A stretch of DNA of 45,034 nucleotides, taken from the UHGV virus genome UHGV-0114729. One strand, given 5' to 3'. Positions 691-25,920 of the stretch are shown one piece after another. This DNA is from a virus. The position numbers were made by a program, and so were the translations under genes. How positions within the stretch are numbered: the first letter of the stretch is position 1; each line of letters opens with the position of its first letter. The notes under the pieces were generated by a model. The model was not told the origin of the DNA. It worked only from the letters and a program-made list of their open reading frames with translations, and searched no databases.

Positions 691-1459
691 CACAAAGACG
701 GTCGGCACGGCGACAGGGAATTTGTTGGAAGTGGGCGCATTTGGTTTGGGCGTCAAGGTGCTGAAAGTGAATTCGGTCACTAACGCTGACAGTTTGGAAA
801 ATTGCTCGTTTGCAGCGGGCATTGGCAGCGACGCTATAAATTTTGCGTCTAATTTTGCCCCGATAATTGTAGCGGCGCGCGATGGTGGTGGGGATGGTAC
901 CGGACAGATCTCTCAGATCCAGAGCGATGACGCGCTGCTTGCGTTTAGATATCGAGGCGGCAATGTCTGGTCTCCGTGGCGTTATGTATATCATTCCGCA
1001 AATACAACAAAAACAAGCGATGGCACGTTAAAAGCTGCGTCGCCTGTAATTAAAATTTTTCACGACGGCTCTGCGGAAACTAACGATGAGTCAGAAGGTG
1101 TAACAGTCTCCAGATTGTGTGTTGGGCAGTACTTGATTGAAGGGTGTGTAGGAATGAACTCCGACGCGGCGTGGGGCGGGATTGATGGCGGGTTTGACAT
1201 TCCCCGAGATCGGAACGGACAGGCGCTAATCTGGCTGGATTACGAAGTGAATGCCGACGGATCAATCCTCGTCAAAACATATCACCGCACGTATCCCGCC
1301 GCTCCTGCATTTGCGCGTAACGAGATAGATGGGCTGGCAGCCGGCGACCCGGTCGACATTCCCGCCGACCAGTTCGTTTCTGTGCGCGTTGAAATGCCCG
1401 CTGATAGCATATGGAATCAGCGGCAATCAATTATTCTGGCTGATCAAGAGCCTGAGTGA
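664..1459 (+). CDS. Silent alternative tail-fibre C-terminal cassette (promoterless; expressed only after inversion)
   Basis: Plus-strand ORF 593..1459 shares the TNLGLGTAAT junction peptide in frame with the left repeat; the part upstream of the repeat overlaps the invertase start region and is not a credible start. Confidence 0.6.
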
Positions 1460-2646
1460 CTTGCTCTTTGGTTATTTTGCAGTTGTGCTTGCAGGTCTGA
1501 AATTTGTTGTTGTAGAGCCTGAACACAGCCGAGGAGATCCATTACTATCGGGTTGTTGTCCACGGACGGGCGATCCCGATATTCCTCACTAATTTTATTC
1601 CCGGCCTCATCATACACCTCCGTGCCGGGAATTGGCTCTGGATTATGTTTGATATACTGCGGGGCAATTATTTCTGCGTCTTCCGCAATAACCCCAAAAC
1701 GTACTCGCTCTTGTTCGTCGTCACGGTAAATAAAATTAACAAGCTCAAGCGACAGCACTCTGTTTAGGGCGGTGGCCGCGTCCGCTAGCGCAATATTTTT
1801 CTTGTAATCCCTGCCAGACGTTCCCTGTAATGCAATCGTTCCCGTTGACGTCGGGAAGTTGATCATTACCTGTCCGGTTTTGTCCCAACCAGTGCCTATT
1901 CTTTTCACTAAATACACTGATACGAAATCATTACTCTCCGAATACGACGTCTCGAGCAACACAGTTTTACCAACAGTTGAATCGGGTGCCGAGGTGATTT
2001 CAAGAGTCATATCCGGGTACGACTGGCCTGAAATCCTTAATTTTGGCAGGGTCTGCTCCTGACTAAAGGTATTTTTTTCGCTCAGTAACGGGATTGCGCT
2101 ACCTGATGTGCCTGTGTTTACTGTCGCCGCTGTTCCTAAACCGAGGTTTGTGCGGGCCTCTGCTGCTGTTTTGCCACCGGTGCCGCCCTGAGCGATACTA
2201 AGCGCTGTAGTTAACCCGGTCAGGCTCGTAATGTCCTTATTTGCCCCTTTCTTCGCTAGCGATTTCTGACCAGGAACGGTCACAGCCACACCGTTAATCG
2301 TAATTGTCACGTCCCCTGTGCCGTTCATTACGTCAGCGAATCCGCTCATATTGCGCTGGTACAGAGTGAACGTCTCGGCAATATCTTGCGCCAGCCCATC
2401 AACGCTCAGACTATCACTCAGCAGAATTGAATATTTCGTACCGGCTGGAATTGCTGGGCTGGCAGCAGGCGTTACAGTGAGACTCGTAGCGCTGTTAATT
2501 GCAGTAATCTGAAATACCTGTGCCGGATTTGTCAGTGCAATAACAGTGCAGCCGTTCCGAATTAATGAACCCGCAGCAGTAAAATTAGTTCCGGTGCCGG
2601 TCAGAGTATTACCGCTGACAGCGATAGTGCCGGTTGTATAGATCAT
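1444..2646 (-). CDS. Tail fibre protein: constant N-terminal part plus currently expressed variable C-terminal cassette with intramolecular chaperone (peptidase S74-like) domain
   Basis: ORF 1444..2664; likely start is the ATG at 2646 (MIYTTGT) preceded by GGAG; C-terminal SGRDYKKNIALAD...RFGVIAEDAEIIAPQ resembles the auto-cleaving chaperone of endosialidase-type fibres. Confidence 0.75.
   Translation of the reverse strand: MIYTTGTIAVSGNTLTGTGTNFTAAGSLIRNGCTVIALTNPAQVFQITAINSATSLTVTPAASPAIPAGTKYSILLSDSLSVDGLAQDIAETFTLYQRNMSGFADVMNGTGDVTITINGVAVTVPGQKSLAKKGANKDITSLTGLTTALSIAQGGTGGKTAAEARTNLGLGTAATVNTGTSGSAIPLLSEKNTFSQEQTLPKLRISGQSYPDMTLEITSAPDSTVGKTVLLETSYSESNDFVSVYLVKRIGTGWDKTGQVMINFPTSTGTIALQGTSGRDYKKNIALADAATALNRVLSLELVNFIYRDDEQERVRFGVIAEDAEIIAPQYIKHNPEPIPGTEVYDEAGNKISEEYRDRPSVDNNPIVMDLLGCVQALQQQISDLQAQLQNNQRASHSGS
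2126..2152. repeat. Right inverted repeat of invertible segment (gix-like crossover site)
   Basis: Reverse complement of 664..690 (26/27 identical); lies in frame inside the tail-fibre ORF at the conserved TNLGLGTAAT peptide. Confidence 0.8.
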
Positions 2647-2660
2647 TTTATTTTCTCCAG

Positions 2661-2690
2661 GCAATAAAAAAACCCCGCCGGAGCGAGGTT
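2661..2690 (-). terminator. Rho-independent terminator after the lipoprotein gene
   Basis: Minus-strand hairpin CCTCGC-TCCG-GCGGGG followed by TTTTTTTATT. Confidence 0.6.
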
Positions 2691-2709
2691 TATGTTTAAG
2701 CGTAGTGGG

Positions 2710-2943
2710 TTATTTGCAGGTTGTTTCGGTAAATGTATTCGCACTTACCCAGCGCCAGCTGAAAGGATATCCAGCCCGGTACTGCGTCTGGTTGTTTTGT
2801 TTACGCACACCGTAAATCTGAACCGTAGTTTCCTGACCGCCAACGATTGCAGTGCCGCTGCAAACTGGTTCCTGTTTCTCAATTACGCCAGCGCATCCTG
2901 TAAGCATGACAGCGCCTGCCATGCAGATAATCAGTTTTCTCAT
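2710..2943 (-). CDS. Small lipoprotein (moron; possible Cor-like superinfection-exclusion protein)
   Basis: 77 aa; signal peptide plus lipobox LTGC; own promoter-like region upstream and own terminator downstream; sits between tail-tip and tail-fibre genes. Function is inferred from position only. Confidence 0.6.
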   Translation of the reverse strand: MRKLIICMAGAVMLTGCAGVIEKQEPVCSGTAIVGGQETTVQIYGVRKQNNQTQYRAGYPFSWRWVSANTFTETTCK

Positions 2944-2994
2944 TTTGATAGTATCCAGAGGAATTCAGTATCTTAGACGATACCAATACAATTC

Positions 2995-3054
2995 TGGTGG
3001 GTATAATTGATTGGATAGATCAATATTATGTTATTGATCGCTAAAAACGATCAA
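2995..3054 (-). promoter_or_regulatory. Candidate promoter/operator of the lipoprotein gene with two 8-bp palindromes and three GATC sites
   Basis: GATCAATA-N6-TATTGATC and ATTGATCG-N7-CGATCAAT; minus-strand TTGATC-N18-CATAAT sigma70-like elements. Confidence 0.4.
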
Positions 3055-3729
3055 TCAATCATAGGCCGCTGTATTTATGGCGGTTAATGAAATGCCAGTA
3101 TTCGTTCCCCCTCCAGGTGAACCTGCCCCAGTGGAGGTCCCCCCTGCGTTTATCCTCGTATTGGCCCCGTCAAACCTGCATGAAGAATAAGCATTTATCG
3201 TGTAGATAGTCGGAGGCTTGGTTGAATTATTCACAATGATGGTCTGACCCAACTGAGCAGGTGCAACGGCCCATGACCCGCTCAGCGTCTGGTCAATATT
3301 TATCCCGCCGTTTGCACCAGGCGTGCCAACCGTCTGCAGGTCTGATAGCACACGGGACTCATTAGTTAACACAAGCTTTCCGCTCGCATCCCATATTGCC
3401 AAACCCCATTTCGGTAATATCTGCGGGAATATGGCAAAAACGTACGCCGTTAAAGTGAAACTTTGGTTGTAGGGATTAACACCAGCAACATACACATTAC
3501 CGCCGTTCCTGTAAGACATAACCGGAGTGGGCTGTGCTGTATTGGTGGTTTTGATAAAAACCATCACTGGGTAATCAGCGTTTAAAGCGATATTTTGAGC
3601 AACCTGCTGAGAACTGCCATTCGCGGATGAATTGAAGGTATACTTCCCGTAAAGACAGAAAGGCGTTGATTGTGGCGTTACAAAGGGATTCCCGTTATCC
3701 ATTAATATCATCGCGCCAAATTCGGCCAT
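3055..3729 (-). CDS. Hypothetical tail-associated protein (downstream of J)
   Basis: 224-aa ORF whose start overlaps the stop of the preceding ORF; Gly/Asn/Thr-rich; shares a WDASG motif with the upstream 100-aa ORF. Confidence 0.5.
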   Translation of the reverse strand: MAEFGAMILMDNGNPFVTPQSTPFCLYGKYTFNSSANGSSQQVAQNIALNADYPVMVFIKTTNTAQPTPVMSYRNGGNVYVAGVNPYNQSFTLTAYVFAIFPQILPKWGLAIWDASGKLVLTNESRVLSDLQTVGTPGANGGINIDQTLSGSWAVAPAQLGQTIIVNNSTKPPTIYTINAYSSCRFDGANTRINAGGTSTGAGSPGGGTNTGISLTAINTAAYD

Positions 3730-4031
3730 TATGCTTTCTCCATGAAAACGACCACCTCACATTTAGAGGCCGGGTAATTACCCAGGCCCACAGAAGAGGC
3801 TGCGGTTACGGTTATTGTGTTCCCTGACGCGACAATGCTCCTCCCTACGCTGTTACCTCCTTCATCAAGTGAGAGCGCAAAACCGACCTTCATTCCTGAG
3901 GGTACAGTGAAAGACCAGCTGCCGGAGTTTTGTCCGGCGGCAAGTTGTATACGTCCAACAACGGAAACGGGCTTGATTCCGTAGTTGTTGGGGTTTCCCG
4001 AAGCATCCCAGGTCTGTATTCCATAAGCCAT
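3729..4031 (-). CDS. Hypothetical tail-associated protein (downstream of J)
   Basis: 100-aa ORF overlapping the J stop; translationally coupled. Confidence 0.5.
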   Translation of the reverse strand: MAYGIQTWDASGNPNNYGIKPVSVVGRIQLAAGQNSGSWSFTVPSGMKVGFALSLDEGGNSVGRSIVASGNTITVTAASSVGLGNYPASKCEVVVFMEKA

Positions 4032-4032
4032 A

Positions 4033-7000
4033 TCAGAACACCCCCGTTAATCGGCCAACCTGCACTCTCAGAACGTTGTTGCCATCCTTGACGCTGATTG
4101 TCTGGTTGGTCTGCTTCATGGCTCCCTCCCCAGCTGTCGAACCGTAGTTCTCAAACGTCCCGGACTTATCCAGTTTCCAGCCAACAGAGCCGGCAACATA
4201 ATTGTTCGACTGGATGTAATTGCCAATTTTTGCATTGCTTATGGTCCCGTCGCCAATGACTGTATCCCTGATAATGGCCTGGCCATTCTGAATAACGAAT
4301 GGCAGCGTGACCGCACCACCGGCCTGAGTCATAACAGCAAAGCGGTTAGCCAGGAACAGCACCTGCGACTGCATACCTGCTGGCGTATTTTCGACTCCGA
4401 TACCCATTCCGGCAGCGTATTGCCGTCCGTTCGAGTCGATAGCGACTTTAATACTGTACATCGCATTCAGATTTCCGCTGATATCTGCAACCGCCCGTGC
4501 GTTCTGTTCAATTACTGTCGTCTGCCCATTAACTGACACTGTCAGCGAGTTAATCCGCGTTGCTGACGCCTGCGTGAAATCCGCAAGAGTTTTTGCAAAA
4601 TCAGTCGTATTTGCAGTACCACCTCCTGCACTTGAATCCAGCGTTTTGAGTGACTCAGCCACAGCCAGGCTTGCATCAGCCATCACGTTATCGACACGTT
4701 CGAGCCCTGCTTTATTGTCGCCGTACTGCACACTCATTCGCTGCGACTGATTCACCTGCGCTAACGTCTGCTGAATTACTGCAATCGCGTTATTCTGAAT
4801 GCCTCCTTTAATGACGCCCACATTACTGCTCTGATCTGCGATTTCTGCTGAGATTTCGTCAAAACGTAACGCTGTGGCGCTGTCCAAATCCGTGACCACT
4901 TGATCCAACTCGCTGATTTCTGCGGCATTGCGAGTACTGGCTTGTTCCGCCTCATCTGCTTTATCGCTGGCAGCTTTAGTAGCAGCAGAAAGCTCGTCGA
5001 GTCGCAGCGCTGTAGCTGATTCTGTATCTGTCACAACCTGCTCAAGCGCTGTGATTTTCGCTGCATTTTGTGCGCCAACCTTACCCGCCGCGTCCGCTTT
5101 AGAGTCGGCAGTCTTAGTAGCAGCATTGAGTTCATTAAGACGCGTCGCGACTGCTTGAGACTCGTCAGACATAGCTTGACGCACTTCAATGATATCAGCT
5201 GCGTTGTGCTCTGTAGTAGCTTCAAGGCGCAGTACATCAGCAACACGGGCTTCGGTCTCGTTGGCTATGGCTTCCTGTGTGCGCTCGATCCCGGCCTTGT
5301 TGTCCAGGTACTGAACCGTCATGGTGTTGCGCTGGCTAACCTGAGCTAACGTGTTGTTAATCAGAGCGATGGCATTACTCTGAATGCCGCCCGCAGCGCT
5401 GGCAGTAGCAGCGCTAAGCTCATCAAATCGTGAAGCGGCCGCAGAGGTGCTATCTGTAACAACTTGGGTAAGTGATGTGATATCCGCGCTGTTCTGTGCG
5501 CCAACCTTACCCGCCGCGTCCGTAGCAGCAGTAAGCTGATCGACAGCAGTTGCGCGGGCTTGAGTTTCATCAGCAAGTGCTTGTCGAACCTCAGTGATGC
5601 CCGCCGCGTTATCCTTCGTCTTAGCTTCGAGACGGGTAACATCGGTCACGCGAGCTTCAGTTTCTGTCGCTACAACTTCCCGTAGTTGCTCGAATTGCGC
5701 CGTATTAGCGCCGTTTTGGGCGGTCTGACGCAATACGACATCAGTAATCGCGAGAGAATTGGCAATAATAGCTTCAGCGGTCTGTTTGTTAGATGAAACC
5801 GCCGCGGCAAGACTATCTGCATTTTCACGAATCGCTGCTGCCAGATTTTCAGTACTGGATTTCAAATCCTCTGCAGTTTGTTTCCCGTCAATAATTGCAG
5901 CTGCCAGCGCGTCGGCATTTTCCCGGACCGCATCAGTCAGTTCGGCAATATTTTTGGTATCCTCATCTACAGTGGCGATCAGGTTTTTGAAAACCTCTGT
6001 TTCCTGAATCTCTTTGAATATTGCATCCGTAATTTCTGAAACATCGGTGCTCGCCTGCCCGCGCACCCAGTCGGTATACCCCGATTCGTTACCGGTCCGG
6101 TCAACAAGTTGCGCGCGGTACCAGAAAATCTGCCCAGCCTTAAGGCCCATCTGCTGATATTTGCGCTGCGGGTAAGGCACATCGGCCAGCAGCATTGCAT
6201 CGTCCTCGGTACCGGTCAGGCTATACTGAATTTCCGTCTTCAGCGTGTCTTCGGTATTCGCCGGGAATCCCCAGTTCAGCTCGATACCGAATACCACGTT
6301 TTCAGAAGCGATGAAGCCAACCGGCTTCGGTGGGTTTCCCACTTTACCCGTCAACGTTTTCTCTTCTGAATAGCCCCACCCAGATGAAATTTCGGCGGCA
6401 TTGATGGCACGCACGCGAACCAGGTAGCGTCCTGCATAAATCCCCGGAACATCGAATGACGTGGTGGAGCTGCGCGGCACATTCACCCAGTTCCCGTCAT
6501 TGCGACGCCACTGTGCCTCATACGCGATAGCATTTTTCGCCTGGTCCCAGCTGACGCGCATGGTCTCAACGCTGATATTCTGCTGAACGACAGAAAACGA
6601 ACTGATCGCGATATTAGCTGGCGGGGACTGATTACCGGGCGGAATTACACTTATTGGCCGCTGGTCGATAATGGCACCGGTATCGATACGCGCATATTTA
6701 TCCGGATCGTGCAAAGCGCCAGCAATCGAATACGTTCCGTCATTATTATCCGTAACGCTGATAACGCGATATTGCTGCGCGTAAAGCTCTTCAGACTCGA
6801 CAATCCACACCGATTCCACTGCAGGTGTTTCGCTGTATGCCGTTGTCACAGTGACGGCCCGCCCGTTTACGCTCTGTATCGTCCTGCTCTGCGATGCGCC
6901 GGACGGAAGGTTAACCATCAGACGGCTTCCGGGAGCGGCTGCCGAATCACGATCAAGCGTGATAACGCGACCGTTAACCGCACTGATGCGCCCTCCCATC

Positions 7001-8490
7001 ACTTTTCCGGAAAGCAGCTCATCGGCAACCGCGATGATATAACCAGGCTGTGGGATCTTACCGTCAAGACCAACATCGAACGACACGATGCGATCCTTGT
7101 TATTGGTCAGGATACCCCAACGTCCTTTGCGGTTTGCCTCTGACTGCCGGGTACAACCAATGGCTGTCATTTCGAGCTGATTTGTGCCAAAGCGAGCAAC
7201 GAGATCCTGCTCAAATACAGGCTCCATCGCATCCGCGTAGGCATTACCCGGATCGGACCAGGAAACCAGTGCCGTGGTATAGCGGGTTTTGGTGGTGCTG
7301 CCCGAATAGGTAAAGCGCCCATTAACCACGTTTGCACGCGTGTAGCTGTAATCCACATCGCGGGGCATATCCGCCAGCGCAACGATTTGATCGCCACCCC
7401 AGTACGTCATGCCCCGGAATATCGCCGCAAAATCACGTAACACGGTATAGGCGTCATTCCTCTCCTGCACGTACACGTTACAGGTATAGCGAGGCTCAGT
7501 GCCGCTACCGCCTTTACCATCAGGAACCGGCTGATCGCAATATTGCGCGACCTGATAAAGCGTCCATTTATCAATATTGGCCGCCGTCAGGCGATTGCCC
7601 AGCCCAAAGCGGTCGCTCACCACCAGATCGTAAAAAATCCAGGCTGGATTATCCGTCCACGCCCACTTAAACGCCCCTGTCCATGTGCCGCTGTAGGTGC
7701 GGGTCTCCGGGTCATACGTATCCGGAACGCGGATTACACGCCCTCGCGGTTCGCAGGATATTTGCGGGATAGAGCCGTTAAACTGGCTTGAGTCGAATTC
7801 GATGTACAGCAGCGCGGTATTTGGATAACGCAGTTTGGCGTCAATAACCTCTGTGTAGCTCTGCAGCGTCATCGTGTCGCCAATTTTCGCGCTGTTGGCA
7901 TCCGCCGTAAGCTTACGCAGGCGCACCGTCCATGTACTGCCTGCCTGTGGTAAATCGATACGATGGCTGCGTTCGTAGCCGGAAGTTGTCTTGCCGGTTA
8001 CGCTGGTATTAAGTACCGTCTGCCAGGTGCCGCCATCGGTCTGCAGATCAATAGCGTAGTTAATTGAATAGCCAACCAGATCGCCATCATCCTCCTGTTT
8101 AAAAAGCGATGGCCACTTGAGGCGCAGGCGAACGGCTGACAGTTGCGTGTTGGTAAAGGTATGTGTCCAGCCGGTGGTGCTTGACACTTCGGTGCCCACG
8201 CTGATTTCATTTTCTGTGCCGGGGATACCCTGAATATATTTTTGTGCCTGAGTCCCCGGACGAAATTCCCACGCCACGCCACTGAAGTTTTGCGATCCGT
8301 CTGCATTCTCCAGTGGCGTGCCATCGAGATAGATATCCTTCGCCGTCAACTGCCCTGCAAATTCGCCCTCTCCCAGTGCAACAAGAATTTTGGCTTTCGC
8401 TACGGACTGGAGATCGTCTGGTTGTTCAGTCGGGGTGCGTGAACTGGAGCTGCCGCCCTTGCGGCCTCTAATCGGAGTAGATGTAGCCAT
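4033..8490 (-). CDS. J: Host specificity protein J (central tail fibre / tail tip)
   Basis: 1485 aa; follows I as in lambda; J-like N-terminal two-thirds; carries an internal tandem duplication in the C-terminal third. Confidence 0.85.
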   Translation of the reverse strand: MATSTPIRGRKGGSSSSRTPTEQPDDLQSVAKAKILVALGEGEFAGQLTAKDIYLDGTPLENADGSQNFSGVAWEFRPGTQAQKYIQGIPGTENEISVGTEVSSTTGWTHTFTNTQLSAVRLRLKWPSLFKQEDDGDLVGYSINYAIDLQTDGGTWQTVLNTSVTGKTTSGYERSHRIDLPQAGSTWTVRLRKLTADANSAKIGDTMTLQSYTEVIDAKLRYPNTALLYIEFDSSQFNGSIPQISCEPRGRVIRVPDTYDPETRTYSGTWTGAFKWAWTDNPAWIFYDLVVSDRFGLGNRLTAANIDKWTLYQVAQYCDQPVPDGKGGSGTEPRYTCNVYVQERNDAYTVLRDFAAIFRGMTYWGGDQIVALADMPRDVDYSYTRANVVNGRFTYSGSTTKTRYTTALVSWSDPGNAYADAMEPVFEQDLVARFGTNQLEMTAIGCTRQSEANRKGRWGILTNNKDRIVSFDVGLDGKIPQPGYIIAVADELLSGKVMGGRISAVNGRVITLDRDSAAAPGSRLMVNLPSGASQSRTIQSVNGRAVTVTTAYSETPAVESVWIVESEELYAQQYRVISVTDNNDGTYSIAGALHDPDKYARIDTGAIIDQRPISVIPPGNQSPPANIAISSFSVVQQNISVETMRVSWDQAKNAIAYEAQWRRNDGNWVNVPRSSTTSFDVPGIYAGRYLVRVRAINAAEISSGWGYSEEKTLTGKVGNPPKPVGFIASENVVFGIELNWGFPANTEDTLKTEIQYSLTGTEDDAMLLADVPYPQRKYQQMGLKAGQIFWYRAQLVDRTGNESGYTDWVRGQASTDVSEITDAIFKEIQETEVFKNLIATVDEDTKNIAELTDAVRENADALAAAIIDGKQTAEDLKSSTENLAAAIRENADSLAAAVSSNKQTAEAIIANSLAITDVVLRQTAQNGANTAQFEQLREVVATETEARVTDVTRLEAKTKDNAAGITEVRQALADETQARATAVDQLTAATDAAGKVGAQNSADITSLTQVVTDSTSAAASRFDELSAATASAAGGIQSNAIALINNTLAQVSQRNTMTVQYLDNKAGIERTQEAIANETEARVADVLRLEATTEHNAADIIEVRQAMSDESQAVATRLNELNAATKTADSKADAAGKVGAQNAAKITALEQVVTDTESATALRLDELSAATKAASDKADEAEQASTRNAAEISELDQVVTDLDSATALRFDEISAEIADQSSNVGVIKGGIQNNAIAVIQQTLAQVNQSQRMSVQYGDNKAGLERVDNVMADASLAVAESLKTLDSSAGGGTANTTDFAKTLADFTQASATRINSLTVSVNGQTTVIEQNARAVADISGNLNAMYSIKVAIDSNGRQYAAGMGIGVENTPAGMQSQVLFLANRFAVMTQAGGAVTLPFVIQNGQAIIRDTVIGDGTISNAKIGNYIQSNNYVAGSVGWKLDKSGTFENYGSTAGEGAMKQTNQTISVKDGNNVLRVQVGRLTGVF

Positions 8491-23965: not shown

Positions 23966-24260
23966 CGTAAGAAGACGATAAGCTGGAAAGGACCCGAATA
24001 ATGCATACATCCGCATATATTATGGGCCCACACTCAAGCAAATAACTTGTATATGGTCGTAAAATCCTAATAGCATCTACCAAAGCAAACTATTGAAATT
24101 AACCTGTTCATCATGCTTTAAAATAAACCTATGTAATTAACATTTCCACTTAGTTCCAAACTGTTGTGTGTAGCAACTGACACATAGCCAAGAAATAAAT
24201 ATCGTCGCAACTTATATGTCACCCCACTAAACCTTATCAACAAACTTACACGTTAAACAC

Positions 24261-25148
24261 TTAATCCCTATCTAAAATCCCTTTCTTATAAGCCCTAGCA
24301 AGATAAAGTAGGTTACTTTCCTTATCATCACTATGTAAAATCTCAGCATGCTTATCACTTACTTTAATGAATCCCTTCGCAGCCTGCAGAAGCCCCAAAC
24401 CTGTCACCAACGGATTTTCCGTGTCGCTAACACTAATAATCGCTCCTAAAACAATATTAACCATATCGTCAGAACCTGGCATTTCAAAACTTAAATTGTA
24501 GCGATTTAAGAACCAACCTTTATTAATTTCACTAATTCTGTTTATATCTTCCAAGGAATTACGGAAGCGTTCATAAGCCTTTTTTTGAAAAAGCGGCTCA
24601 TCGGGAGCATAAGCAACATCTTGGTATAAGTCATCCAGATAATTATGGAACGCATCATAATCAACTTTATATTTATGCTTAAACTCAAGTATCTGCTCAG
24701 GATGGATATGTGGTCCGGGAACAGGAAGTGCATCAAAGAGTTCAAGTTTTAAGTTCGTATTTCTATCACTTGTCCCATTCCCCCCTATAAATTCCTCTCC
24801 TATCTGATGTAAATTCCAGTCACGCTGAGGCTCATCCTTCCTTAACTTACTAAGTATCTCAACCTGACGTTTTGGGAACTCTATCGGGTACTGATCGCTA
24901 TTGAATCCGATAGACACTACTGGTCTAGACAAAAAGTCCAAACCAATCAATATATCTTCTCGGGGTAATTGAAAATATATTTCTCTTGAGCCTGGAATTA
25001 CTAATCTATCCCAAAAAAGAGTGTAATAATTCAAATCTTCTTCATTCAACCCTCGCGCTGTCTGGAATCCACCAGTGGGCAAAACTTCCGTCATAACAGG
25101 TGAAGCAACAACACATCTTTCCACAATATTCCCCTTAGTAGTTTTCAC
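24261..25148 (-). CDS. Hypothetical protein, AT-rich cargo gene between Rz and cos
   Basis: 295-aa ORF; GC content visibly lower than flanking phage genes; AT-rich flanks; first codon is GTG and the true start is uncertain (GTG at 25124 has a better SD); contains RDWNLH. Confidence 0.55.
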   Translation of the reverse strand: MKTTKGNIVERCVVASPVMTEVLPTGGFQTARGLNEEDLNYYTLFWDRLVIPGSREIYFQLPREDILIGLDFLSRPVVSIGFNSDQYPIEFPKRQVEILSKLRKDEPQRDWNLHQIGEEFIGGNGTSDRNTNLKLELFDALPVPGPHIHPEQILEFKHKYKVDYDAFHNYLDDLYQDVAYAPDEPLFQKKAYERFRNSLEDINRISEINKGWFLNRYNLSFEMPGSDDMVNIVLGAIISVSDTENPLVTGLGLLQAAKGFIKVSDKHAEILHSDDKESNLLYLARAYKKGILDRD

Positions 25149-25398
25149 TCAAAAGCTTAGGAGAAAGTAACTATCACACCCACAAAAAAAAGTAAACGAA
25201 AAATACTGTATACTTGATTTGGATTATGAAACTCTATCAGTCACGCTTGTGGCAATAATAAAAATAATCGACAACATCGGAATACCTAATAAACAATCAT
25301 CTCAAAAATGAAATCTACTAGCATTTTTCAGAACGTCTTTTTCATAAACTAGTACATAGAACAGTTTGACTGACTTCATAAAATTTATTTTTCCCTAG

Positions 25399-25920
25399 TT
25401 AATGAGATGCTCGAACATTTTCTATCTCTCGAATCCCTGCAAAGCGCTTGTTGCCCTTTTCGATAAGTGACAGTAACGGTTTTATCCAAAGCACTGCCTG
25501 ACAATATGTCATTGGGCTGGTGGTAACGGCACGATCATCGGCTGAGTTAAGTTTGTCGGTATCGGTGTGCATGGCGCTGGCACGTAAACGGTACGCGTAT
25601 TCGAGCAGCCCACCAGCAATGTCAGCAGGAACAGGCAGATCACAGGTTTTTTCACGGCGGAGAATCTCCCGGTATTCGATAACTGTTTCTTCAGTACTGG
25701 TGTCGATCAGGGAGTTAAGCCTGATGGCATGTTCGGCAACCTGATTGAATCGATTGAAGTTGAATGCCTGGGTGGCGATCACCTGCCCCTGCATAGAATT
25801 GTCGCTTCGCAGAACGTCGTTATCGCTCTGAAGGCTACTGGCGTCGGAGCAACTCTTAACGAGAGCGACCGAAAGGACAGCAATAACAACAACGCCGATA
25901 AGACCCGGATTAATTTTCAT
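25399..25920 (-). CDS. Rz: Rz i-spanin
   Basis: Start MKINPG at 25920 overlaps the endolysin stop (ATGA); N-terminal transmembrane segment then coiled-coil periplasmic domain. Confidence 0.8.
   Translation of the reverse strand: MKINPGLIGVVVIAVLSVALVKSCSDASSLQSDNDVLRSDNSMQGQVIATQAFNFNRFNQVAEHAIRLNSLIDTSTEETVIEYREILRREKTCDLPVPADIAGGLLEYAYRLRASAMHTDTDKLNSADDRAVTTSPMTYCQAVLWIKPLLSLIEKGNKRFAGIREIENVRASH
25509..25655 (-). CDS. Rz1: Rz1 o-spanin lipoprotein, embedded in the +1 frame of Rz
   Basis: Hand-translated: GTG start after GGGAG, MKKPVICLFLLTLLVGC lipobox, proline-rich mature part, 48 aa; not on the ORF track because it is under 60 aa. Confidence 0.7.
   Translation of the reverse strand: MKKPVICLFLLTLLVGCSNTRTVYVPAPCTPIPTNLTQPMIVPLPPAQ

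Follow-up and report, generated by a model that had tools for sequence, protein, structure and literature searches.

In this study, we found that cor, a phage exclusion gene of a lambdoid prophage, is preceded by an operator that is, in its sequence, equivalent to the validated Dam-sensitive binding sites of OxyR. The gene lies on the minus strand of the virus genome UHGV-0114729, all 45,034 nucleotides of which are referred to here as the window, and forms a cassette at 2661..3054 within a complete phi80/mEp237-like E. coli prophage that adjoins the host gene kch. By analogy with the known systems of this type, host Dam and OxyR probably compete at about -82..-46 and so determine cor expression, which may be phase-variable.

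Cor is a textbook receptor-blocking exclusion protein of temperate coliphages, and we found no study of its regulation in the prophage. Neither the identity of cor nor its status as a moron is new, and agn43, gtr, opvAB, and mom are established examples of the Dam/OxyR switch; what appears to be new is the placing of cor under Dam/OxyR-type control, drawn here from sequence comparison. In the literature searched, cor was not found to be linked with GATC, Dam, or OxyR; older cor papers (Vostrov et al. 1996, Uc-Mass et al. 2004) lay beyond that search, and an earlier mention is possible. A GATC/OxyR-like operator is also absent from the retrieved database annotations of phi80, HK022, and other cor genes, and the methylome papers on ST131 and Klebsiella do not mention the cor locus.

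The cor gene and its cassette

Judged by its matches, the 77-aa product of the open reading frame (ORF) at 2710..2943 is Cor, not merely a Cor-like protein. It is 100% identical to phi80 Cor, it matches phrog_1119 ('Cor superinfection exclusion protein') with E = 7e-37, and it scores 140.9 bits against the NCBIfam equivalog NF047972 ('phage exclusion lipoprotein Cor'), the cut-off of which is 31. The original prediction, made from the sequence without database searches, described a 77-aa lipoprotein ORF on the minus strand, a terminator, palindromes, and three GATC sites within ~35 bp, and all of these are present at the coordinates it gave. Its reservation that an assignment to Cor had no sequence similarity behind it is refuted by the matches above.

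The protein starts with a signal peptide (2943..2896; MRKLIICMAGAVMLTG, then C) that ends in the lipobox LTGC, with the codon of the acylated Cys17 at 2895..2893, and the record of the identical phi80 protein annotates processing by signal peptidase II. Under the general sorting rules for lipoproteins, the Ala at +2 is consistent with sorting to the outer membrane. Cor proteins of HK022, N15, and phi80 shield lysogens from FhuA-dependent phages through the inactivation of FhuA, which lowers ferrichrome uptake (PMC3594210), and Cor and the T5 protein Llp have a common predicted fold (bioRxiv paper on the T5 FhuA:Llp complex).

With its own terminator and its own predicted promoter between conserved neighbours, cor is a moron. 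The earlier description of an insulated moron within the tail region was thus borne out, and the records of related phages agree with it: that of phi80 (FN582354) gives cor as a moron with -35, -10, transcription start site (TSS), lipoprotein processing, and terminator, and that of HK022 labels it 'moron gene product; phage exclusion'. The terminator hairpin has a predicted folding energy of -17.6 kcal/mol (z = -2.85), and a search of the region against Rfam gave only sub-threshold matches, on this terminator. A deviating base composition is usual in morons, and not strictly defining; the GC content of cor is ~0.47 against 0.46-0.53 in its flanks, and the AT-rich part of the cassette is the intergenic operator only (GC 0.42). 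We also sought a clean site without cor among gp23 homologues to set the boundaries of the cassette, and none was found because gp23 homologues almost always have cor next to them.

An OxyR-like operator with three GATC sites

Two perfect palindromes, ATTGATCG-N7-CGATCAAT and GATCAATA-N6-TATTGATC, lie between gp23, the preceding gene, and cor (Table 1). The former, when up to 2 mismatches are allowed, occurs once in the window where 0.02 occurrences are expected; the arms of the latter are 7 bp in most relatives (GATCAAT-N8-ATTGATC). Read on the plus strand, 3015..3051 has the form ATAG-N7-TTAT-N7-ATCG-N7-CGAT and agrees with 16 of the 20 specified positions of ATAGnTnnnAnCTAT-N7-ATAGnTnnnAnCTAT, the OxyR consensus that reportedly goes back to Toledano et al. 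1994. This scoring is crude, and by it the B half-site of P22 gtr scores 10/10. No other site in the window, on either strand, scores above 13/20; the match has P ~4e-4 for the intergenic region, and ~0.013 such sites would be expected window-wide.

Dam/OxyR switches have two or more GATC sites inside the four-element OxyR match, and here there are three. Furthermore, the operator shares its arms with the validated methylation-sensitive OxyR site of P22 gtr, and its GATC spacing with mom and, to within one base, with agn43. By the counts above, together with the retention of the GATC sites in relatives (Table 1), the GATC/OxyR-like arrangement as a whole is far beyond chance.

It is very improbable that the palindromes are a Fur box tying cor to FhuA expression, or a functionless AT-rich palindrome that arose by chance. 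The receptor targeted by Cor is Fur-regulated, Fur and Dam sites overlap at the promoter of the sci1 type VI secretion system (PMC3145626), and GATC triples are common by count. However, the best match to GATAATGATAATCATTATC in 2944..3075 is 11/19, which is ordinary for a window in which 13 sites reach 13/19 and a further 69 reach 12/19, and a Fur box was rejected for this reason; chance is excluded by the conservation of the operator together with the exact-motif statistics.

Conservation and natural variants of the operator

A total of 108 cor loci were collected from phage records, from one genome per species, and from the IMG/VR database. They comprise 68 distinct upstream sequences, and 49 distinct ones with the GATC module were used for the promoter count given below. 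GATC sites at -109, -96, and -78 (±3 nt), with 13/18 spacing, are found in ~55 of the 68 distinct sequences, and the prophages that carry this module come from Escherichia, Enterobacter, Pseudocitrobacter, Trabulsiella, Buttiauxella, Rahnella, and Hafnia, with Cor proteins 61-77% identical outside Escherichia. The three GATC sites are the most conserved intergenic columns across the 68 loci, which represent at least seven genera: mean conservation is 0.985 in GATC columns, 0.74 in other intergenic columns, and 0.61 at third codon positions of cor. Four conserved blocks (CGATCGTTTnnAnCGATCAAT, AATTGATCT, AAYCAATTAT, and TTGnTAnnGT) alternate in the alignment with freely varying spacers. This alignment bears the mark of strong purifying selection on the operator.

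Some cor genes have variant operators. In the HK022 lineage (locus L005 of our collection, 342-470), a deletion of exactly 4 bp removed GATC1 and a G-to-T substitution removed GATC3, and the OxyR match is 15/20. In N15 (L232, 2500-2620), the distal half-site is kept with one GATC, the proximal half is degenerate, and CGATTGAT replaces CGATCAAT. These variants may be locked in one state. One GATC is missing also in each of the IMG/VR contigs L034 and L036. The cor genes of Serratia and of an Aeromonas phage are preceded by another arrangement, two GATC-bearing half-sites spaced N17 as in gtr, the proximal one over the -35 region. Two independent operator architectures before cor argue that operators of this kind are linked to cor itself and are not a hitch-hiking sequence.

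The predicted cor promoter lies downstream of the operator

An extended -10 element, TGGTATCGT, is present at 2985..2977, coincident with the -10 annotated for phi80 cor. Its conservation profile is promoter-like, with T, G, T, A, and T kept and the intervening positions varying, and an extended -10 is found 39-42 nt ahead of the ATG in the cor genes of HK022, N15, Rahnella, Serratia, and the Aeromonas phage. Given a transcription start near 2970, the GATC cluster is located at about -82 to -48. Most likely, then, the operator (about -82..-46) lies upstream of the cor promoter and does not overlap it.

A promoter within the palindromes, TTGATC-18-CATAAT (3054..3025), at which a bound protein would occlude RNA polymerase directly, is improbable. 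A consensus scan matches it at 9/12, and an analogous predicted promoter lies over the A half-site of P22 gtr, where the P22 record takes the TTGATC of OxyR(A) as a -35. However, that scan returned 3 promoter-like sites where chance alone would give 1.8, and any -10-like hexamer at the CATAAT position is found in only 6 of the 49 distinct module-bearing relatives, as compared to 49 of 49 for the downstream extended -10. CATAAT falls in the least conserved stretch, and phi80 reads CTGATA there. The measured TSS of P22 gtr is 33 bp downstream of GATC4 (PMC2909390), and because the TTGATC promoter predicted for P22 disagrees with it, we regard TTGATC as a promoter look-alike. The sigma70-like promoter overlapping the palindromes, as originally proposed, was rejected on these counts.

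The module is not confined to cor

An exact scan of IMG/VR for ATTGATCG-N7-CGATCAAT gave at least 120 matches; among those listed, 66 precede cor, 1 belongs to a P22-type gtrA, and 53 lie elsewhere. A third GATC stands exactly 18 bp from the pair in 42 of these 53 listed non-cor, non-gtr matches. Their contexts (among loci L112-L231, e.g. L120, L125, L130, L118, L133, and L224) include the gap between a 40-aa membrane peptide gene and a P2-type tail sheath gene, a 47-aa ORF (MELNQEEAE...), an O-acetyltransferase gene, a gene for a distant Cor-like lipoprotein, and a repressor-like gene. The module is thus present in unrelated phage contexts (P22-type, P2-like, Mu-like, and lambdoid), and by its distribution the three-GATC module appears to be a portable cassette. 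This spread over unrelated phages argues for a host factor, not a phage repressor, as the protein that reads it.

Somewhat less likely than the divergent promoter weighed below, and in our view doubtful, is a factor other than OxyR, such as SeqA, another LysR-type regulator (HdfR), or a phage repressor. SeqA requires closely spaced hemimethylated GATC sites, which the triple here, within 31 bp, would provide after replication, and ATC-N9-GAT is a generic LysR-type box. The binding of HdfR at the std operon is described as being blocked by GATC methylation as well (PMC6735912). In contrast, the flanks outside the GATC sites are also conserved and are identical to a site bound by OxyR, the 16/20 match is to a four-element consensus specific to OxyR, and the presence of the module in unrelated phages favours a host factor over a phage repressor. 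The sequence comparisons thus point to host OxyR as the likely binder. Of the earlier proposal that a repressor competes with Dam methylation, the competition with Dam is backed by the gtr arms, the mom and agn43 spacing, and the conservation, whereas the binder is likely host OxyR instead of a phage repressor. No Dam gene is annotated in this prophage, so host Dam would be the methylase.

A model for cor expression

In the most likely scenario, cor would be transcribed from the extended -10 promoter at 2985..2977 to its own terminator. OxyR would bind 3015..3051 when the GATC sites are unmethylated or hemimethylated and would shield them from Dam, and full methylation of the sites would exclude OxyR. 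The bound and the methylated states would each be inherited, so that cor transcription would be bistable in the lysogen population. As a matter of general lambdoid biology, late antiterminated transcripts of the tail operon would in addition continue across cor and past its terminator into stf, and cor would therefore also be expressed in lytic growth. Such switching would hedge resistance to phages and FhuA-directed toxins (colicin) against the use of ferrichrome, comparable to the trade-offs of gtr and opvAB.

The direction of regulation is not readable from the sequence. We lean slightly towards repression by OxyR, such that cor would be ON in the methylated state, since agn43 and mom likewise have a contiguous four-element site. 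By analogy, the contiguous N7 spacing together with an upstream position is shared with mom, and OxyR represses both mom and agn43; the exclusion shown by N15 lysogens despite their degenerate proximal half-site points the same way. An activator role is favoured by the cor promoter having no -35 and by the precedent of gtr, which OxyR activates from the upstream AB site; HK022, furthermore, has lost GATC sites yet kept the OxyR match. The contiguous N7 form fits the consensus for oxidised OxyR, and for this reason cor might also be peroxide-responsive, closing the iron-siderophore gate when iron is dangerous.

Several observations weigh against control of cor by Dam and OxyR. The link to OxyR is drawn by sequence analogy. 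Three GATC sites spanning 35 bp are not rare on count alone: the window has 159 GATC sites in its 45 kb, and of the trials in which these were placed at random, 55% yielded at least one triple within 35 bp. For this reason we rejected GATC clustering as standalone evidence. Conservation in relatives is lower at the half-site nearer the promoter (ATAA-N7-CTAT in the window); a Rahnella cor locus, for example, matches the consensus at 14/20. Lysogens of HK022 and N15 show Cor-mediated exclusion (PMC3594210), and since these two phages have one GATC each, the triple is dispensable for expression; moreover, the two variants imply opposite signs of regulation. In the Salmonella phage ES18 (L235, 2336-2578), cor is inverted and has an unrelated upstream region with neither the module nor GATC sites, so not every cor gene shares this regulation. 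Finally, all 53 distinct cor modules have TATAAT or GATAAT on the strand opposite cor, exactly 10 nt ahead of the singleton GATC, and this suggests that the operator may belong, at least in part, to a divergent promoter.

This last hexamer bears on an explanation that we consider unlikely, namely that the operator serves a divergent plus-strand promoter (TATAAT at 3002-3007) which fires through the GATC sites and yields an antisense RNA against the 3' end of gp23. In that case, OxyR would block that promoter, and cor would be affected indirectly by RNA polymerase competition, or not at all. The same position is occupied by GATAAT (18), TATAAA (10), or TCAAAT (9) among 39 non-cor modules, the cargo is on the pair side, downstream of the hexamer, in some of these (e.g. 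an O-acetyltransferase in L130), and back-to-back -10 elements 20 bp apart would compete. The agn43 promoter likewise crosses its operator, with TTGTCC-17-TAGAAT, as read from the sequence, 5 nt before GATC1. However, the putative divergent promoter has no recognisable -35 (ATACCA, 3/6), and no conserved ORF or known RNA lies downstream of it on the plus strand. The distance from the module to the cor ATG is fixed across genera while gp23 diverges, and the second cor lineage has another GATC/OxyR-like operator directly over the cor -35. The conserved block at 3001..3012 could be the -35 or UP-element region of cor or such a divergent promoter, and the overlap of the hexamer with the former could account for its conservation. 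Control of cor itself by Dam and OxyR is the reading that we prefer.

A broader proposal is more tentative: Cor-mediated closure of FhuA may be phase-variable by way of a portable module (a -10-like hexamer followed by N10-GATC-N14-GATC-N9-GATC) that is read by OxyR and Dam and serves as a general bet-hedging promoter of enterobacterial prophages. If so, Cor-ON cells would resist FhuA-dependent phages and agents that enter by way of FhuA, such as colicin M, but could not import ferrichrome, and Cor-OFF cells would coexist with them. Recombination would have spread the cassette to positions before gtr, O-acetyltransferase genes, genes of small membrane peptides, and the 47-aa ORF. Superinfection exclusion at FhuA would then be a population-level bet, not a constant trait, and this would bear on the trade-off of the lysogen between phage or colicin resistance and siderophore uptake, on the reading of phage-susceptibility assays and of phage-therapy host-range tests on lysogens, and on how frequently prophage accessory genes are accompanied by such epigenetic cassettes.

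The locus and its neighbours

An identical locus is present in the E. coli chromosome NZ_CP085069, the annotation of which matches the window frame for frame, and among 5426 complete E. coli genomes, 45 contain the cor-locus DNA. The aligning parts of the structural module share 97% identity with mEp237, ~93-94% with HK225 and phi80, and 90% with N15. For the DNA at 2640-3120, the phages mEp213, mEp043, HK140, and mEp237 match 98% of the length at 100% identity, and phi80 matches at 94% identity. On the minus strand, the genes are ordered J-like tail tip, gp22, gp23, cor, and stf; the order gp22-gp23-cor-stf is common to phi80, N15, and HK022, and to ES18 except that its cor is inverted. The stop codon of gp23 (TGA, 3057..3055) directly adjoins the operator.

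Table 1. Coordinates of the cor cassette and its neighbours in the window (distances to the ATG are those of cor)
Feature	Position	Strand	Remarks
Perfect palindrome ATTGATCG-N7-CGATCAAT	3033..3055		Arms 3033-3040/3048-3055; contains LysR-type box ATC-N9-GAT
Perfect palindrome GATCAATA-N6-TATTGATC	3018..3039		Arms 3018-3025/3032-3039
OxyR-consensus-like operator, 37 bp	3015..3051		16/20 specified consensus positions
Distal GATC of the 13-bp pair	3049..3052		-109 from ATG; in 62/68 distinct cor loci
Second GATC of the pair	3036..3039		-96 from ATG; in 67/68 distinct cor loci
Singleton GATC, 18 bp off the pair	3018..3021		-78 from ATG; in 63/68 distinct cor loci
Conserved block	3001..3012		AATCAATTATAC on the cor strand, GTATAATT on the plus strand; TATAAT 3002-3007 (+), 10 nt before GATC 3018
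Extended -10 TGGTATCGT (TGnTAnnnT)	2977..2985	-	In 49/49 distinct module-bearing relatives
Predicted cor TSS	2969..2971	-	From the -10 and the phi80 annotation; 5' untranslated region ~26 nt
Conserved GGAT, ribosome-binding region	2953..2956	-	10 nt 5' of ATG
cor, phage exclusion lipoprotein Cor, 77 aa	2710..2943	-	phrog_1119, NF047972, phi80 identity
Rho-independent cor terminator	2661..2691	-	9-bp stem 2691..2670, then U-run
J-like tail tip gene	4033-8490	-	
gp22-like gene, 100 aa	3729-4031	-	phrog_557
gp23-like gene, 224 aa, function unknown	3055..3729	-	phrog_425; last gene ahead of the cassette
Side tail fibre gene stf	1357..2646	-	Downstream of the cassette

The gp22 and gp23 genes (3055-4031) belong to no Pfam or NCBIfam family, and their PHROG labels, 'outer membrane protein' and 'membrane associated protein', appear unfounded. 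This pair accompanies cor in phi80, N15, HK022, T1-like phages, and ES18, all of which we take to be FhuA-dependent phages.

Beside the cassette, the window at 50-2646 holds a tail-fibre segment of the Gin/Cin-type invertible kind, with an adjoining serine invertase gene (50-598, phrog_125). The invertible segment, ~1.46 kb long, has 31-nt inverted repeats at its ends (664-694 and 2122-2152, 94% complementary) and carries an alternative tail-fibre C-terminus at 644-1372 on the plus strand, opposite the present 3' end of stf. It resembles a host-range switch by DNA inversion, and it lies directly beside the epigenetic switch proposed here. Farther away, between the terminase and lysis modules (24024-25811, minus strand), are two accessory genes, named in RefSeq 'Fur-regulated protein' and 'SDH family Clp fold serine proteinase', which may be further morons.

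Comparison with known systems

At the level of the gene, the cor loci of phi80, mEp213, mEp237, HK022, and N15 do not differ from that of the window: all have cor in the same gp22-gp23-cor-stf position, with a terminator and a predicted extended -10. Among epigenetic switches, the pap type, which depends on Lrp and Dam, has two GATC sites ~100 bp apart, each within Lrp sites. We rejected such a layout here; the cassette has its three GATC sites within 35 bp of one another, and 2641-4833 contains no further GATC.

The agn43 (flu) operator has three GATC sites in one contiguous OxyR site, spaced 19/13 as compared to 18/13 in cor. Its sequence GATCAATATCTATTTTATCGATCGTTTATATCGATC is very similar to GATCAATATTATGTTATTGATCGCTAAAAACGATC on the plus strand of the window, with GATCAATAT...GATCG in common. 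The two differ in that the agn43 site is downstream of the TSS and blocks flu, whereas the cor module is inverted and upstream of its promoter; the position of the agn43 promoter was read from the sequence, and the annotated 5' end of IsrC at GATC1 agrees with it.

The mom operator of phage Mu, which is controlled by Dam and OxyR (PMC2909390), has three GATC sites with the identical 18/13 spacing and, like that of cor, serves a phage accessory gene. Its position, about -87..-53 (TSS estimated from the sequence) as compared to about -82..-48 in cor, is upstream of the weak promoter Pmom, which OxyR represses when it is unmethylated. Unlike cor, mom has the operator in mirrored orientation to the promoter and a poorer match to the OxyR consensus, and the phage activator C is also needed; phase variation of mom is not known.

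The regulatory region of P22 gtrABC shares the half-site itself. Its OxyR(A) half-site, ATTGATCG-GTAACAA-CGATCAAT, has arms identical to those of the cor palindrome with the GATC pair 13 bp apart, and OxyR(C), ATTGATCG-CTTGTAT-CGATCAAA, is nearly equal to it. The flanks are alike too (CGATCAAT(T)AACAT and CTATC..AATTATAC), and gtrA shares the promoter type, with an extended -10 TGCTACACT 40 nt before the ATG as compared to TGGTATCGT in cor. On the antisense strand of gtr, TGTATAAT stands between OxyR(B) and OxyR(C). The architectures differ: gtr has three half-sites (A, B, and C) spaced N17 with four GATC sites, AB activating and BC repressing, whereas cor has one contiguous four-element N7 site with three GATC sites that leaves the -35 uncovered. 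In electrophoretic mobility shift assays, AB and BC probes of gtr bind OxyR(C199S) only if unmethylated, and phase variation of gtr depends on the state of these sites (Broadbent et al. 2010, PMC2909390). Like cor, gtr is a prophage accessory locus that changes the cell surface and affects phage adsorption.

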